Source: a virus (Duplodnaviria; Caudoviricetes). Taken from it: 64,000 bases of DNA. The DNA is taken from IMG/VR virus record IMGVR_UViG_3300029288_005816, positions 26,755 to 90,754 of that record. One strand, written 5' to 3'. Shown in pieces: positions 1 to 59,799 of this stretch. The notes beneath the pieces are model-generated. The model did no database searches. It saw only the letters and a list, made by a program, of their open reading frames with translations, and was not told the origin of the DNA. Position numbers and translations under genes: made by a program. Position 1 is the stretch's first letter. The number at the start of each line of letters is the position of its first letter.

Positions 1-811
1 TATCTTGCATTCTTAATCTTGTTTGTATGTCAAGAGCACCAAACGGTTCGTCTAAGAGTAGCATTTCATTATTTGCAATTAAACTCCTAGCAATTGCAAC
101 CCTTTGGAGCTGCCCTCCACTTAAAATAGGATATTGTGCAAATTTGTGTTCATGTCCTTCAAGATTAACGATTTTTATCATTTCCATAGCTTGTTCTTCT
201 CTTTCTGCCTTTGCAACGCCTTTTAACTCTAATGGTAAAGCAACGTTTTGCAAAACTGTAGACCATGGGAAAGATGAATATTGTTGAAAAACCATTCCTA
301 CTTTGTCGTTGGCCGTTTGTAATTTACCGTCAACTAAAATTTCGCCAGATGTTGGTTTTTGCAAATTTGCAATATATCTTAATAATGTTGATTTGCCACA
401 TCCACTTGCCCCAACAATTACAGTAAACTGCCCAACGCCTTTTATGTCTCTGACCCGAAGATTAAAATTATCAAATATTATATTTTTTTCTCCAGATTTA
501 TCTTTATAAATCTGAGAAATATTCTTTAATTCCAATTTATCAACTGATTCATACTTTGCTTCATTAAAAATAATTTTTGGACTTTCTTCAGACACAGTAT
601 TTATAACTGGAACCTCAATAGTTTCTGTCTTTGTAGTATCAAAATATGTTTTTTTAGATTGAGAAGTTTCTGAAACGTCACTTTGTACAAAAACCTGGGG
701 TTCTTTTTTTTTACTTCTAAAAATGCTTGAGAAAATATTATTTTTCTTTTTTGTTTCATCTGTGGTACTTGAAACAACGGTCTCTATTTTTTTATCGAAA
801 TAGCCTGGCAT
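1..811 (-). CDS. ABC transporter ATP-binding subunit (NitT/TauT-like), runs off the window's left edge
   Basis: Not in the ORF track. ATG at 811 is in frame with Walker A GASGCGKST (386-412), signature LSGGQLQRVAIAR and Walker B LLLDEPFGALD; about 100 aa low-complexity N-terminal extension. Confidence 0.92.
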   Translation of the reverse strand, partial: MPGYFDKKIETVVSSTTDETKKKNNIFSSIFRSKKKEPQVFVQSDVSETSQSKKTYFDTTKTETIEVPVINTVSEESPKIIFNEAKYESVDKLELKNISQIYKDKSGEKNIIFDNFNLRVRDIKGVGQFTVIVGASGCGKSTLLRYIANLQKPTSGEILVDGKLQTANDKVGMVFQQYSSFPWSTVLQNVALPLELKGVAKAEREEQAMEMIKIVNLEGHEHKFAQYPILSGGQLQRVAIARSLIANNEMLLLDEPFGALDIQTRLRMQD

Positions 812-7710: not shown

Positions 7711-8234
7711 TATAATTTTATTTTTTTTGGAATTCCATTCATAGCAAGATAAAAATTACTATATTCTTGAAGATGTGTGACTTCTTCTCCGAACCATGAT
7801 GGTGCAATAAAAGAATCACAATCTAATTCATTATCAAATTCTACTTCTACAGTATATAGTCCATTTAAATTATTTTTATATACATCCAGATAAGCTCTTT
7901 GTTTATGCCCTTCAAGAGGTAATTCATATCTATATTTATGAACAGATATGTTTTTACATAATGGCCATAATATGTGAAATTGAGGTTTTAAAAGTTCAAC
8001 TTCGTATTCTTCTCTAATTTTAGTTCCAGTCCCTTTAATTGTTTGATAGCATTGCTCTCCAAGATTATAATTTGTTGGAGACATATGCAATACTTGCCTA
8101 AGCCTATATATATAACTACTTCCTAAAAAATTTTGAATATATCCTTGATTAATATCCCTATAAGCTTGCTTTGACAAATCTGGTAAATTTTCAACCAATA
8201 CAATAAATTTTCTTTCAATCTCTATGTTTTTCAT
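7710..8234 (-). CDS. CYTH domain protein (triphosphate tunnel metalloenzyme)
   Basis: EIERKF N-terminal motif, KYRY, YLDVY, VEVEF. Confidence 0.88.
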   Translation of the reverse strand: MKNIEIERKFIVLVENLPDLSKQAYRDINQGYIQNFLGSSYIYRLRQVLHMSPTNYNLGEQCYQTIKGTGTKIREEYEVELLKPQFHILWPLCKNISVHKYRYELPLEGHKQRAYLDVYKNNLNGLYTVEVEFDNELDCDSFIAPSWFGEEVTHLQEYSNFYLAMNGIPKKIKL

Positions 8235-38467: not shown

Positions 38468-38500
38468 AATACTTAATTTTAATTAATAATTTTATTATTG

Positions 38501-38528
38501 TATACGAAAAATATTTAAAAAAGTTACA
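38501..38528 (-). promoter_or_regulatory. WAAC-N16-CGTA promoter motif copy
   Basis: TGTAAC-16nt-CGTATA. Confidence 0.7.
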
Positions 38529-38542
38529 TAAAAAACAAAAAA

Positions 38543-38612
38543 CAGGGAGTTGGAGGAATTCTCATACCTAGTGTGTACACCACGTTCACAGCTTTCGCTG
38601 CTATCCAACTTT
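38543..38612 (-). ncRNA. Unidentified tRNA-sized structured element
   Basis: Closing stem AGTTGG/CCAACT, GCAGC-GAAA-GCTGT hairpin, T-arm-like AGG...CCT. Confidence 0.35.
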
Positions 38613-38621
38613 GCTTCTTTG

Positions 38622-38697
38622 TAGAAATGATTGGATTCAAACCAACGACCCTTGCCCTGTCAAAGCAATGCTTTAAATCAGACTGAGCTACACTTCT
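38622..38697 (-). tRNA. tRNA-Val(GAC)
   Basis: Acceptor AGAAGTG/CATTTCT, anticodon arm TTGCT-TTGACAG-GGCAA; no encoded CCA. Confidence 0.85.
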
Positions 38698-38698
38698 G

Positions 38699-38773
38699 TG
38701 GGAATAGAGGGATTTGGACCCCCGATAACCAGAATGTAAATCTGGTGCCTTAAACCTACTAGACGATATTCCC
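38699..38773 (-). tRNA. tRNA-Val(TAC), Glu-like D-arm
   Basis: GGGAATA/TATTCCC, CCAGA-TTTACAT-TCTGG. Confidence 0.8.
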
Positions 38774-38780
38774 GAAAATA

Positions 38781-39140
38781 AAAAGATAAGGTGAGCGTAG
38801 CCAGAGTTCTGTTTTATTTTAGCATTTATCTGAAGTACTTGACACGTCAACACTCCGTTAGCCTCTACCCGATTATCATAGAATTGAAGGTTCCCATTCT
38901 AAATCCGTTTGAGTTATACGCCGCCCATTGGCTGCCTATTATTGATAGACGTTGCACCAGTAATAACGATTATAATTCGGGTCTTGCAAGGTTTCTGGTT
39001 TACTTAGCTTAGTACAAACCTTTTTTATCTTTTTGCCAAATCTAACAGCTTTAACATTTATAATCTCCTGATTCCTTCTTTATGACGTACTCTGAACTTC
39101 CTCACATTTTACTGTGCGCTAAATCCTCTTTCTTATCTTT
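38781..39140 (-). ncRNA. rnpB: RNase P RNA (bacterial type)
   Basis: GAGGAAGTTCAGAG (GAGGAAAGUCC-like) near the 5' end; AGATAAAT...ACAGAACTCTGGCTAC near the 3' end; P1 AAAGATAAG/CTTATCTTT, P2 TTTAGC/GCTAAA, P4 with bulged U; AGTAAACC...GCAAG core; about 360 nt. Confidence 0.82.
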
Positions 39141-40007
39141 AATAATTTTCCAATGTTTTTTTTGACAATTATCTGAACAATATTTTTTGTGATTATGTTT
39201 GGCATCAAACTTGATTTCGCAAAATTTACAAACTCTTCCATAATAACTTTCATGAACTTTTGAATCCCATTTATGATTGTAACAAACTACTGGACTTTCA
39301 CCTATAAAATTAAAAAATTCAAAAACACTCTTGTTTGGAATAACAATTCTATTTTTGTCTTTTTTTAAATATGCATCAAATCCCATTTTTTTTAATTTAT
39401 CAATTAAATACATATTATCTGTTTCAGTAAAAGAATCACTGCAAAATATCACTCCATCTTGATTATCTAGTGTTCCATCTCCTAAAAACCAATGCAAAAG
39501 CACTGTTCTATTTAATTCAACATCTTTTGGAACAATTTTTTTCCCATTTGGATACCATTTATTTCTTAATCCTGTAAATACGCTATTTGCTTGCGAATAT
39601 ATAGTAAAATACTCTTTTCCTTTATTGTATTTACCATAGCCAAACACTTTGTTTTTTTTAACTTTAAAATCTAACTCTGATATTAAAAAATCAATATATT
39701 CTTCAAATTTACAAAGATGTGTAAAAGAGGAGTTTTGGTTGTTTTTTGTTTTTCTATAACTACCATCAGAAAGTAGTGAACCAGTCAAAACATCAAGGGT
39801 ATTGCTTGAAAAAATTTCTACAATGTCGTTTTTCTTCCCTTCATCAGAGCACTTGTGAGAACAAAATTTGTTTGGCTTATGCTTTCTTTTAAAAAATTCT
39901 TGCCCACACGTCTCGCAAACTCCTTTAAGGAAATATTCATACCCATTCTTATTTTTTCTTAGTTTTTTGTATGAACCATCTTTTACTAATTCAAAATCTC
40001 CTGTCAT
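39102..40007 (-). CDS. LAGLIDADG-family homing endonuclease with Cys-rich ends
   Basis: LTGSLLSDGS and LHWFLGDG motifs; CxxC...FCS..C at both ends. Confidence 0.8.
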   Translation of the reverse strand: MTGDFELVKDGSYKKLRKNKNGYEYFLKGVCETCGQEFFKRKHKPNKFCSHKCSDEGKKNDIVEIFSSNTLDVLTGSLLSDGSYRKTKNNQNSSFTHLCKFEEYIDFLISELDFKVKKNKVFGYGKYNKGKEYFTIYSQANSVFTGLRNKWYPNGKKIVPKDVELNRTVLLHWFLGDGTLDNQDGVIFCSDSFTETDNMYLIDKLKKMGFDAYLKKDKNRIVIPNKSVFEFFNFIGESPVVCYNHKWDSKVHESYYGRVCKFCEIKFDAKHNHKKYCSDNCQKKHWKIIKDKKEDLAHSKM

Positions 40008-40507: not shown

Positions 40508-40522
40508 AAATGTTTAGCTAGA

Positions 40523-40601
40523 ACCACCAACAGGACTCGAACCCGCAATTTCAGCTCCAGTTACAAGTACAAAGTTCGTATCTTTGCTTGGCTATGGTGG
40601 T
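40523..40601 (-). pseudogene. tRNA-like element with intact acceptor and T arms but rearranged D/anticodon region
   Basis: ACCACCA/TGGTGGT, GCGGG-TTCGAGT-CCTGT; anticodon not assignable. Confidence 0.55.
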
Positions 40602-40687: not shown

Positions 40688-40760
40688 TGGAAGCACCAGG
40701 GGTTAAACACTGGAACACACGGGAATTCAATCCGCTGCTCTGTCGCTGAGCTATACTTCC
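40688..40760 (-). tRNA. Degenerate tRNA-Phe(GAA), possibly a pseudogene
   Basis: GGAAGTA/TGCTTCC, GCGGA-TTGAATT-CCCGT; aberrant T arm. Confidence 0.55.
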
Positions 40761-41692
40761 TTGCTGTATTTTACTTTTGTCCAATATCCTAATTTATTTT
40801 CAAGTTGTAGTCCATATTTTTTTGCTCTTTTTTTAATTGAGTTCCCGCTAACTCCAAACATTTCTCCTATTTTTGTATATGGATATTTCTGTATTAACTC
40901 TTCAAGTTCGTCTTTGGTTATTTTAAACCTTTCTATTTTTATACCACGTTCGATATTTGGATTAATTCCATTTAACTTATTTCGCTTGTCTCCTTTAAAT
41001 GTATTTTTTTTTCTTTCCATACATTCTGAATAATTATTTATAAGTTTTCTTTTGAAATCTGCCCCCAAATTTAAAACAAAAACTCTTTCCTTTTTTTTGA
41101 CATCAAACTCAATATTATATTTTATTTTTATCTGATTTAAAAATGATTCACACCCACAGTACAACTCACAAGAATTCGCATCCCCATCACCATCATAATA
41201 TCCAGACAAAAAGGATAAATTTAACAGTTCATCTTTGAATTCTGGTAAATTTATTATTTTACTTTTTGCATTTATACAACCTTTATCAACTATATGACGC
41301 ACAAATTCCTTATTAGTTATTCTTATAGATATTGATTTGCTTCCACAGGGGTGAGTTCTTTTCCTTATCTTATCTTTATTTGCACCAACAACTTCACAAA
41401 ATTTTTCAACTTGATTGTAGTCTTTTTCCGATAAATCTATAACTGCCCTACTATTAGTTGGAGAAATATATCCATCTGCATATAAAAACCCAAGCCAATA
41501 TGCTTTTTCTTTAGAATCTATACTCTTAAAAAAATTAACTTTTAAATTTGGATGTGCCTTTTTTGTTTCTCTACAAATATTGAATTTTTTTAATCTTCTA
41601 GCAATAGTGTTTCTATTAACATTATAGATTATTCCAATTTGTGTATTATTTAAACCACTAATAACAAATTTTTCCAATTCTTCTTTTTCCAT
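40751..41692 (-). CDS. LAGLIDADG-family homing endonuclease with terminal HTH segments
   Basis: AYWLGFLYADGYI and FLSGYYDGDG. Confidence 0.85.
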   Translation of the reverse strand: MEKEELEKFVISGLNNTQIGIIYNVNRNTIARRLKKFNICRETKKAHPNLKVNFFKSIDSKEKAYWLGFLYADGYISPTNSRAVIDLSEKDYNQVEKFCEVVGANKDKIRKRTHPCGSKSISIRITNKEFVRHIVDKGCINAKSKIINLPEFKDELLNLSFLSGYYDGDGDANSCELYCGCESFLNQIKIKYNIEFDVKKKERVFVLNLGADFKRKLINNYSECMERKKNTFKGDKRNKLNGINPNIERGIKIERFKITKDELEELIQKYPYTKIGEMFGVSGNSIKKRAKKYGLQLENKLGYWTKVKYSKEV

Positions 41693-41764: not shown

Positions 41765-41837
41765 TGGAGACTCCAGGTTTCGGGCCTGACTCTTATCCTC
41801 TTCAGGGATACGCTTTCACCAGATTAGCTTAGCCTCC
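41765..41837 (-). tRNA. tRNA-Phe(GAA)
   Basis: GGAGGCT/AGTCTCC, TATCC-CTGAAGA-GGATA; non-canonical T-loop CCCGAAA. Confidence 0.78.
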
Positions 41838-44860: not shown

Positions 44861-46288
44861 TTAACGATTTTTTTGTTTTAATTCTCTGGCCGCTTGTCTT
44901 TCATTGTTTCTCTTTTTTTCTTCTTTGCGTTCTTTAAAAGAAGGACCAGAGTTCTTGTCTTTAATATTTAAAATAGGCACCAGTCGGTCAATAACCGTAG
45001 CAGTATCAAAATTTAACCTTTCAATTGTATTAACATTTTTATACGCATTTGGGGCCTCATCAAGCGTTGATTTTACAACAGAAGTCGAGTAAATTCCCTC
45101 CATCTGCTTTCTAAATTCATCTAAATCCAAATTTTCTTTTGCAGCGGAACGACTCATTTTTCTACCAGCCCCATGTCCACAACTGTAATTCCATTCAGCA
45201 CTTGACTTCCCTTCGCAAACAAGAGAACCATCTCTCATATTAAGTGCCACAATCATTTTTTCTCCAATATATGAACGAATAGCACCCTTGCGAATAATAA
45301 AATCTCTAAAATCAATATAATTATGAACACTTTCAATTGAGTCAACTGGATTAATCCCTCCTAATATTTGGCACACTATATTCAACATCATTTTTCTATT
45401 AAATTGTGCATATTTTTGGGCAACTACCATATCCAAAAGATATTCAAAGGCACATTTATCTTCTAAAAATTCCATACCTTTAACATCAAAATTAAAATCA
45501 AGACCAAGCTCTTTTTTTGCATTTTCCGTTAGTAAAGGAATTGTTGTTTTATCTTGTGTGTTTTTGTTTATAAATTCTATCTTATCTTTTAATTTTACAT
45601 TTCTTTTGTCACTTAAAGTATCTTTTGCTATATTTTGATGAAATTCACAAACCATCTTGCCAAAATTTCTTGACCCAGAGTGAATTGTTACCCAAACATT
45701 TCCATAAACACTTGATTTTGAAACTTCTATAAAATGATTGCCGCCACCGAGCGTACCAATAGACATTTCTGCTCGATTTGGTTTCATTCCAATTTTTTGG
45801 CATAATTCTCCAAAATTTTTATATTCATATTTACTATATAAATAATCTGTTCCAAATTTAGCATTATAAGCCCTTATAAAAGCCAGCATTTCATTATTTA
45901 ACTCATCCCATGGAAAGTGTTTATCAAATGAAAATTTATCAATAGAATTAATCTTAAATGATTTTTCATGAGTATCAGTCCCCATAGGAATATCTCTTCT
46001 AATTCTATCATCCAATTCTTTTAAAGTGATAGGTAGTTTATCGCCGATATTAGCAGATAGAACAGCGCATCCTATATCAACACCTATTGTTTGAGGTATT
46101 ACTTTAGTTCCAAGTGGCATCGTAAACCCTACAACAGAACCTTTCCCAGCGTGAGCATCAACTTGAATTACAACAGGATTATCAAATGCAACATGGTTTA
46201 TCATGCTGTTTATTTGATTAATACATTGTTCTTCAATTTCATCATTTGTAATTAATGCGCTTGTGTATTTTCCTTTAATTGTATACAT
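44861..46288 (-). CDS. rtcB: RNA ligase RtcB
   Basis: DAHAGKG, GVDIGC, GTLGGGNHFIE, HSGSR, HNY, RKGA, HGAGR, DEAP.AYK. Confidence 0.95.
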   Translation of the reverse strand: MYTIKGKYTSALITNDEIEEQCINQINSMINHVAFDNPVVIQVDAHAGKGSVVGFTMPLGTKVIPQTIGVDIGCAVLSANIGDKLPITLKELDDRIRRDIPMGTDTHEKSFKINSIDKFSFDKHFPWDELNNEMLAFIRAYNAKFGTDYLYSKYEYKNFGELCQKIGMKPNRAEMSIGTLGGGNHFIEVSKSSVYGNVWVTIHSGSRNFGKMVCEFHQNIAKDTLSDKRNVKLKDKIEFINKNTQDKTTIPLLTENAKKELGLDFNFDVKGMEFLEDKCAFEYLLDMVVAQKYAQFNRKMMLNIVCQILGGINPVDSIESVHNYIDFRDFIIRKGAIRSYIGEKMIVALNMRDGSLVCEGKSSAEWNYSCGHGAGRKMSRSAAKENLDLDEFRKQMEGIYSTSVVKSTLDEAPNAYKNVNTIERLNFDTATVIDRLVPILNIKDKNSGPSFKERKEEKKRNNERQAARELKQKNR

Positions 46289-58632: not shown

Positions 58633-59715
58633 TTATTTTATTTCTTTTTCATAATTTTTTATCCACTTTCTTATTGCATTATCTGATACTCCATATTTTT
58701 CTCCAACAGCGACATAAGATGTTCCTTTTATTTCCTGAAGTAATTGTTCGTATGGGGGGCGCTCAACTCTTCTTTGCTTTATTTGAGAGCATTTTACACA
58801 CACATTACTTCTTTTTTTTGTTTCTTTTTTGCATCTTGAACAATAATATATAACTTTATTTTCTTTTATTAATAAATTTTTGTTTATCTTTTGGGTATCG
58901 CTTCCTTTATAAAATAAATTTAATTCTGTTTTAATCCCAATCTCCATCTTATGAATTTCTTCAAAAACATCATCTTTGTTTTTAGTTTTATATACATTTT
59001 CAAATATTTTAATTTTTTCTAATAATTTCTCTAAAGAAATAGAAGATTTAGCATTTTTTTTTGAATTCATTTGTTGTGGCATAAGTTCGCAATTTGCTGG
59101 ATGACTAATTATTATAGGATGTATTCCGTTTAAAAATCCATCATTTATTGAATACATATGGTCTCTGCTTACTCCATTTAAATTGTTCCCATTGTTTTTT
59201 GCTTTGTACCATCCATAATTTTCTATTAATTTAAAATTAAAATATTCTGGAAAATTTTTAATCCCAAACTTAAATTCACATAGTTGCCTATATCTTTCTA
59301 TTCCCGTTTTTTTAGAAGTACGCCACAACATTTTTCCTTGTTTTATTGCAAGTATAATTGCTTCGTAATTATTCCTAAATTTTATTTTTTCATTATCTTT
59401 ACCCCACTTTAGTGCTTGATATGGTAGTTTGTATTTTATCATTAAATCTCTTTGCGACATTCCATTTTCATAATCTTTACATATACTTTCCCACTCTAAA
59501 TACTTATACTTACATTTGCAATTATTTTCTAAGTCAACGTTTTTTGTTTCTCTATCAATAACTGCATCATCGTCCCAATATTTATAACCAAGACGATTAA
59601 GTTTTTTTGTAACTGCCCCTTGTGATTTCCCAATTAATTTTCCTATTTGTTTAAAATTTTTACCATTTTCAAACAAATTTATTGCAACTTCAATTTCTTC
59701 TTTTTTCCACACCAT
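58633..59715 (-). CDS. Putative HNH-like homing endonuclease with terminal HTH domains
   Basis: SRDHMYS...HPANCELM...NSKKN; HTH-like ends; likely ATG 59715. Confidence 0.6.
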   Translation of the reverse strand: MVWKKEEIEVAINLFENGKNFKQIGKLIGKSQGAVTKKLNRLGYKYWDDDAVIDRETKNVDLENNCKCKYKYLEWESICKDYENGMSQRDLMIKYKLPYQALKWGKDNEKIKFRNNYEAIILAIKQGKMLWRTSKKTGIERYRQLCEFKFGIKNFPEYFNFKLIENYGWYKAKNNGNNLNGVSRDHMYSINDGFLNGIHPIIISHPANCELMPQQMNSKKNAKSSISLEKLLEKIKIFENVYKTKNKDDVFEEIHKMEIGIKTELNLFYKGSDTQKINKNLLIKENKVIYYCSRCKKETKKRSNVCVKCSQIKQRRVERPPYEQLLQEIKGTSYVAVGEKYGVSDNAIRKWIKNYEKEIK

Positions 59716-59799
59716 ATTTATAATTTTATTATAAATATGTAAAAAAAAACAAATGTCCGACAAAATTTAGGCAACTTAATTTTAAAGGACTTATTTTAG

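Follow-up and report, generated by a model that had tools for sequence, protein, structure and literature searches.

Does a phage carry its own gene for RNase P RNA? RNase P RNA is among the few ribozymes that occur in all three cellular domains, and the literature we found treats it as a strictly cellular or organellar gene. In the full-text literature (subscription-only work lay outside the scope of the search), we found neither an RNase P RNA encoded by a phage nor a naturally permuted one described. Phages are never mentioned in the P finder paper (PMC7191817), and in a 2024 review phage tRNAs are the only phage item mentioned. A preliminary description of a 64-kb stretch of DNA from a large uncultured phage (the window, part of a 90.7-kb IMG/VR record) had proposed an RNase P RNA with a divergent core in a tRNA cluster, directly upstream of two tRNA-Val genes. 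Here, we asked what this locus encodes and what its product might do.

Structure of the predicted RNA

The RNase P-like RNA comprises 359 nt and is located on the minus strand at 38782-39140 (n1 = 39140, n359 = 38782). Its boundaries were taken from P1, and its G+C content is 37% compared with 28% for the window. P1, P2, P3, P4, the bulged U and the conserved segments, all of which had been listed in the preliminary description, are present at 38782-39140 on the minus strand, and the pairings covary across 13 homologs.

P1 is a 9-bp helix formed by n1-9 (39132-39140) and n351-359 (38782-38790). P2 joins n18-23 (39118-39123) to n318-323 (38818-38823), and the P3 hairpin occupies n25-38 (39103-39116). 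A CR-I-like GAGGAAG and the 5' strand of P4 follow at n38-51 (39090-39103). P4 consists of 8 bp with one bulged U (n46), and its 3' strand lies within n326-342, after ACAGAA. Together with J2/4 (ACAGAA) and a subsequent AC, this strand makes up a CR-V-like block (n326-344; 38797-38815). P2 and P4 cross in the manner of RNase P and thus form a pseudoknot, and P1, P2 and P3 are nested. P5 is formed by n52-56 (39085-39089) and n220-224 (38917-38921).

From P5 onward, the order is J5/15 with two invariant adenosines, P15, J15/16, P16, a P17-like hairpin, a CGGGUA loop that contains GGU, and the 3' strand of P15 (n225-280 in all; 38861-38916), followed by a P18-like hairpin (n285-309; 38832-38856) and J18/2 (n310-317; 38824-38831). 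The sequence of J18/2, AGAUAAAU, fits the Rfam type A consensus AGAUgAAUG. The 3' strand of P2, J2/4, the 3' strand of P4 and the 3' strand of P1 complete the molecule.

The core blocks of the phage RNA are GAGGAAGUUC, ACAGAA...UGGCUAC and AGAUAAAU, to be compared with GAGGAAAGUCC for bacterial CR-I and ACAGAA..GGCUUA for CR-V. Thus, the CR-I, CR-V and J18/2 blocks are present with deviations, and in the relatives they align to the Rfam consensus. The divergence of the core that had been noticed before is real: CR-I departs from the bacterial consensus by one A fewer and by GUUC in place of GUCC. A pattern that unites both core motifs matched once in the 64-kb window and in none of 100 shuffled sequences.

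P5 encloses a reduced, lineage-specific S-region (n58-219; 38922-39083), in which a 5-bp stem (n69-73/n181-185) is arranged around an invariant GAG and is accompanied by further hairpins. This S-stem closes a hairpin that is about 85 nt longer in the window copy than in its twin in a related phage (G002, see below), and two extra hairpins of the S-region are specific to the lineage of these two copies. A block resembling CR-II/CR-III of the S-domain was not recognisable in the window copy. At the position of P18, other family members have hairpins capped by GAAA or UUCG, and some members lack it. With its 359 nt, the window copy is the largest family member examined. Its extra length is confined to the tips of hairpins, as would be expected of a real fold. 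Taken by element, the RNA keeps the catalytic (C) domain of type A (P1-P5, the P4 pseudoknot, J3/4, J2/4, J18/2, J5/15 and P15-P17), and lineage-specific hairpins have replaced its S-domain.

Searches with the window copy alone

When the window was scanned with Rfam at gathering thresholds, only tRNAs and no RNase P model were returned. Nothing relevant appeared at E<=10 in 901 nt around the RNA, and in 371 nt the best match was a partial one to RNaseP_arch (RF00373; 7.7 bits, E=4.4), which covered the 3' part only; no match in this segment reached E=1. Scans of the entire 90.7-kb record with RF00010 and RF00011 were negative as well. The Infernal check with RNaseP_bact_a/b that had been suggested for this locus is therefore negative for the window copy, an outcome that is reversed by the comparative evidence given below. 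With blastn against a collection of phage GenBank entries we obtained a tRNA-Pro match but no homolog of the RNA. Since Rfam is negative on the window copy, the copy by itself gives no assignment, and its link to RNase P is transitive, via its relatives.

The minimum free energy of the RNA was no better than that of shuffled sequences (z=-0.06) and is uninformative. This value and the lack of an Rfam match for the window copy would be expected if the resemblance to RNase P RNA were due to chance, or if the locus were a decaying captured fragment without function. The following two sections bear on this explanation.

Relatives of the RNA and their link to RNase P

The neighbouring RtcB gene was used as anchor for a homolog search, which led to G002, a phage contig that is complete at 372 kb and contains a twin of the RNA. 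The twin is 82-86% identical at both ends and about 83 nt shorter in the middle. When viral contigs were scanned for exact 15-mers and 17-mers, almost all matches were due to chance, and the only real one was a third copy (L003). A pattern built from the blocks that the first two copies share with this one retrieved 14 viral loci (12 distinct), most of them on contigs of 250-490 kb. AGGAAG(U/C)UC was found 118-197 nt upstream in each of these loci. The RNAs retrieved by this pattern measure 206-282 nt, each genome has one copy, and 12 of the 14 loci lie within or beside tRNA arrays of the same strand. Relaxing the pattern yielded 24 more loci, and 15 of them had the CR-I motif together with a complementary P4 triplet.

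For comparison with Rfam, loci of about 395 nt, each containing one family member, were excised and searched with the laxest filters. Here, we found that 8 of 14 excised members matched models of the RNase P clan; the sole other family matched was one tRNA. The best matches were to RF00010 (53.2 bits, E=1.4e-14; L127, model positions 1-367), RF00373 (46.8 bits, E=3.8e-11) and RF00011 (45.6 bits), and five further relatives matched RF00373 with E-values between 2e-7 and 1e-4. All seven matches to RF00010 and RF00373 span the whole model. In L127, the Rfam alignment reproduces the type A layout of the J5/15-P17 module. In the alignments of L127 and L129, most S-domain columns of the models are deleted, for instance a block of 110 columns. 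The remaining six of the 14 excised members, including the window copy and its twin in G002, had no match to the RNase P clan.

No relative attained a gathering score (26-53 bits compared with thresholds of 84-100), so that current covariance models miss the phage family (0 of 14 excised copies). Whole-genome scans with RF00011 missed all 13 compact copies, and excision plus lax filters were needed to see them.

To connect the window copy with these relatives, we used an nhmmer profile built from 11 other phage copies, from which the window copy and its G002 twin had been left out. Searched against the whole 64-kb window, it gave a single significant match, at 39135-38787 on the minus strand (profile positions 8-242, E=1.6e-19). 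The window copy is thus homologous to RNase P RNA by way of its relatives. Such a match, and the retention of a single copy per genome in at least 27 viral contigs, speak against chance resemblance and against decay.

Covariation of the predicted helices

We aligned 13 sequences with MAFFT and evaluated 38 base pairs that had been set on the window sequence (P2, P4, P5, S-stem, P15, P16 and P17). In this alignment, 88.6% of the cells were paired, compared with 70.3 ± 1.4% in shuffled alignments, none of which (0/500) reached the observed value. When the partners were slid by 1-3 columns, pairing fell to 29-41%. Changes on both sides were seen for 26 of the 38 pairs.

The two crossing helices were inspected separately. 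P4 was paired in 100% of the cells; three of its pairs had changed on both sides and one on one side in the 13 sequences. It contains a variable triplet whose register is fixed by invariant flanks. Pairing of this triplet is seen in 14/14 sequences, among which there are 11 distinct triplet pairs, as against 18/110 combinations of mismatched partners. For P2, an average of 5.92 out of 6 positions were paired (93% of the cells in the alignment) as opposed to 3.14 out of 6 for mismatched partners; all six pairs covary, the family contains 12 distinct P2 helices, and in 12 of 14 sequences GC comes after the 5' strand. For P5, 86% of the cells were paired and four of five pairs covary. The S-stem was paired in 97% of the cells, and P15, P16 and P17 were paired at 75-80% and covary. 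P1 is present in all family members. RNAalifold, which draws no pseudoknots, independently returned P3 (with covariation), P4 and the S-stem.

Similar information comes from the pair of copies in the window and in G002. Between them, we counted one compensatory double change in P1 (U-A to C-G), one compensatory change in P3, three in P4 and two in P5. Further changes concern a helix of the P15-P16 module and the P18-like hairpin, in which the outer 5 bp stay paired.

It can be seen that the invariant columns are the known functional blocks: GAGGAAG, the J5/15 AA, GGU, AGAUAAAU, ACA.AA and UGGCUA. Across the 13 sequences, GAGGAAG.TCA, J18/2, A226 and A227 (J5/15) as well as G272 and T274 (GGU) do not vary. 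Within GGU, the first G and the U are invariant in alignment A2, as is the middle G in alignment A1.

These compensatory changes are spread over phages in which the mean column identity is as low as 43%. We rejected chance resemblance because it is contradicted by covariation, and we assign next to no probability to it or to a functionless, decaying fragment. The proposal of a phage-encoded RNase P RNA in a tRNA cluster is supported by both homology, including the leave-out match, and covariation.

Comparison with cellular RNase P RNAs

The phage RNA shares order and topology with bacterial type A RNA (RF00010; E. coli M1 RNA, rnpB): P1, P2, P3, the P4 pseudoknot, P5, the P15/J15-16/P16/P17 module with GGU, P18 and J18/2. 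The CR-I, CR-IV and CR-V blocks are present. It differs from type A in that CR-I is one A shorter and has GUUC for GUCC, and in that the S-domain is devoid of P7-P14 and of CR-II/CR-III. Moreover, the family stays below the Rfam threshold (100 bits for RF00010), its best member scoring 53.2 bits and the window copy having no match, and it is encoded by phages with no cognate rnpA in the same genome.

Like the phage RNA, the archaeal type T RNA of Thermoproteaceae (RF02357; Lai et al., 2010, as cited in PMC7191817) lacks nearly the whole S-domain and keeps the C-domain, and in the account given there this S-domain-poor RNA is active with protein. Unlike the phage RNA, type T is described there as cellular and archaeal, works with archaeal proteins and has no counterpart of the bacterial P15-P17/GGU module. 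RF02357 was never among the Rfam matches of the phage family, which were to RF00010, RF00011 and RF00373.

Genomic setting

All tRNA genes of the window are on the minus strand, and the RNA sits between an open reading frame of 301 codons and tRNA-Val(tac). The two tRNA-Val genes adjoin each other (tac, 38698-38773; gac, 38621-38697; minus strand) and were called by ARAGORN and by Rfam (60.2 and 51 bits). The position directly upstream of them could be confirmed, and the gap between the 3' end of the RNA and tRNA-Val(tac) amounts to 8 nt.

Directly after tRNA-Val(gac), at 38500-38620 on the minus strand, there are about 90 nt of higher G+C content with a long-range stem and then a U run, which may form a large terminator hairpin or encode a small RNA. 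For some other tRNAs the two callers disagreed. An 81-nt tRNA-Gln(ttg) at 40521-40601 with an odd position of the anticodon was called by ARAGORN alone, and tRNAs at 40688-40760 (34 bits) and 41765-41837 (45 bits) were called by Rfam alone, all three on the minus strand. These tRNAs may be atypical.

The reading frame on the other side of the RNA (39102-40007, minus strand; 301 aa) encodes a LAGLIDADG homing endonuclease according to Pfam (LAGLIDADG_2, 1.7e-26) and PHROG (homing endonuclease). Its last 13 codons and the TGA stop overlap n1-39 of the RNA (39102-39140), that is the 5' strands of P1 and P2 and P3. In G002, the overlap, the frame and the stop are conserved and the endonuclease ortholog is intact (297 aa, 67% identity). 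The compensatory change in P1 of G002 is at the same time a synonymous codon change in the endonuclease gene, and the last three codons differ where P3 covaries. It is unusual for a coding frame to share sequence with helices of a structured RNA gene in this way. RNase P RNA loci may be the homing sites of the endonuclease.

LAGLIDADG reading frames often reside in group I introns, and in the window a LAGLIDADG_2 frame ends inside the element. Consequently, we considered whether the locus, instead of being RNase P, belongs to the endonuclease, either as the 3' portion of a group I intron or as some other element. Rfam did not return a group I intron (RF00028) at E<=10 in the segments of 371 nt or 901 nt, and on this ground the intron reading was rejected. 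Nor is there an interrupted host gene beside the element. Among the 13 aligned homologs, an endonuclease frame running into P1-P3 was found in the window and in G002, the two members whose flanks were searched for such genes, and the covarying pseudoknot and the motifs fit RNase P. We consider this origin very improbable.

Two more endonuclease-like frames lie between tRNA genes of the same array: 40751-41692 (LAGLIDADG_3/HTH) and 58633-59763 (HTH with an HNH-like PHROG), both on the minus strand. At a distance of 6 kb from the RNA, there is a gene for an RtcB tRNA-splicing/repair ligase (44861-46288, minus strand; Pfam 1.3e-57), which has a 72%-identical ortholog in G002.

The setting as such resembles that of huge phages, which have dozens of tRNA genes and tRNA repair (RtcB in our case). 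In their survey, Al-Shayeb et al. (2020; PMC7162821) list tRNAs and tmRNAs and never mention RNase P. The phage RNA would add a processing ribozyme to the repertoire of phages.

The atypical tmRNA that had been ascribed to this phage found no support: ARAGORN called no tmRNA, Rfam found none in the window at E<=0.05, and the RF00023 matches obtained from the whole record were rejected because they fall on tRNA-Leu genes. The search for rnpA that had been advised gave no gene in this phage or in related phages; more specifically, a six-frame search for RnpA (PF00825) was without match in the phage and five relatives (G000, G001, G002, G004, G008 and G009), three of which are at least 98% complete.

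Proposed function

Judging from the sequence and from the comparison with relatives, we consider it likely that the phage encodes a divergent RNase P RNA at 38782-39140 (minus strand), which would work with host RnpA on phage pre-tRNAs. We infer that the RNA is expressed, assembles with host RnpA and is catalytic, and its substrates would be those named below. The public sequencing runs that contain the stretch are all DNA metagenomes, and the phage occurs in landfill and in groundwater. A scan for sigma-70 promoters gave no excess over shuffled sequences. Most likely, one transcript covers the endonuclease gene upstream, the RNA and both tRNA-Val genes downstream. The RNA would then fold and borrow host RnpA, since the phage has no RnpA of its own. 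The resulting complex would cleave the 5' leaders of phage pre-tRNAs, and the GGU loop would read the 3' end of the tRNA (RCCA). The cut at tRNA-Val, 8 nt beyond the RNA, would at the same time generate the 3' end of the RNA itself. Bacterial C-domain constructs retain activity when protein is present.

The partner protein may also be viewed as the target. The RNA might act as a decoy: with little or no catalytic activity of its own, it would bind host RnpA and in this way block host tRNA maturation or redirect the protein. Loss of the S-domain, the altered CR-I and the lack of an RnpA gene in the phage are compatible with such a role, and conservation is highest in the blocks near J18/2 and J2/4, which contact the protein. 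However, a decoy could do without three features that are invariant or strictly kept: the U bulge in P4, the adenosines of J5/15 and the GGU loop. Their conservation favours substrate binding and catalysis. In addition, the gene is located within tRNA arrays, and phage tRNAs themselves require 5' processing, so that a block of RNase P would harm the phage. For these reasons, a decoy function is in our opinion unlikely.

A catalytic RNA derived from RNase P might still have another main substrate, such as polycistronic mRNA, tRNA-like structures or the endonuclease transcript. Bacterial RNase P cuts some non-tRNA substrates. In the phage RNA, the reader of the tRNA elbow is gone, with no CR-II/CR-III found and the S-domain columns deleted in L127 and L129, and its 5' end is embedded in an mRNA. 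On the other hand, the GGU loop for the RCCA 3' end has been kept, family members are consistently associated with tRNA arrays, and no alternative substrate was identified. We regard another main substrate as improbable.

With a virus-encoded RNase P RNA, the takeover of translation by phages, which includes tRNAs, tmRNA and tRNA repair, would extend to the maturation of tRNAs. The family would also supply dozens of natural minimal C-domain ribozymes, with which the contributions of the S-domain and of P1 can be studied.

Circularly permuted relatives

The third copy, on a 127-kb viral contig (L003; RNA at 2500-2732), has its CR-V/P4-3' block 26 nt upstream of CR-I. This block is enclosed in a hairpin formed by P2, a 6-nt linker replaces P1, and an 11-bp helix joins the two ends of the gene at the position of P18. 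This copy matches RF00011 (RNaseP_bact_b) with E=3.9e-11. A pattern for the permuted order retrieved 11 metagenome contigs. Two of them (L136 and L137) were rejected as chance matches in coding sequence, and one (L141) has the same sequence as L003.

The permuted copies fall into two groups. Group A, which is opened at P18, consists of L003 (= L141), L139 (about 7717-8060, minus strand) and L146 (about 1-326, minus strand). Its order is J18/2, P2-3', J2/4, P4-3', a linker of 5-6 nt in place of P1, P2-5', P3, CR-I and the rest, and L139 matches RF00011 with 51.1 bits (E=2.6e-11). Group B (L138, L140, L142, L143, L144 and L145) is opened between the S-region and P5-3'. Here, a strand of a terminal helix is followed by P5-3', J5/15, P15-P17, J18/2, P2-3', CR-V, a linker, P2-5', P3, CR-I, P5-5', the S-region and the second strand of the terminal helix. 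P5 is thus formed between the extremities of the gene, which are closed by a terminal helix of 5-7 bp, and P2 covaries within the group. Rfam did not recognise the copies of group B at E<=0.01. Leaving aside the two chance matches, the loci of the permuted copies contain tRNA genes oriented like the RNA; L142 and L145 each have a tRNA-Ala gene that begins within a few bases after the terminal helix.

If confirmed, these relatives would be, as far as we found, the first natural circular permutations of the RNase P ribozyme. What is new here, in addition to them, is the largest member examined and the endonuclease frame over its 5' end. A wider scenario may be drawn from all this, which we offer tentatively and hold to be rather doubtful. 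Large phages might seize the 5' processing of tRNAs at the level of the ribozyme. A stripped P RNA would capture host RnpA, the missing S-domain would shift the substrates to phage tRNA arrays, and the gene would mature itself by cuts at flanking tRNAs. The fold would be modular, having been permuted at least twice in relatives and having taken an endonuclease frame into P1-P3 in the window.

Two minor observations were made in the loci of related phages. A tRNA with the anticodon CUA, which ARAGORN names tRNA-Pyl, is present at L003:3475-3550, L112:3664-3735, L116:4992-5065 and L118:7677-7748; it is an amber suppressor and suggests recoding of stop codons in this phage group. Between the permuted RNA of L003 and a tRNA-Met gene, there is a 300-nt stretch of higher G+C content (L003:2790-3095, plus strand) with a T-arm-like end and a weak match to the 3' end of tmRNA (10 bits), which may represent a further structured RNA.
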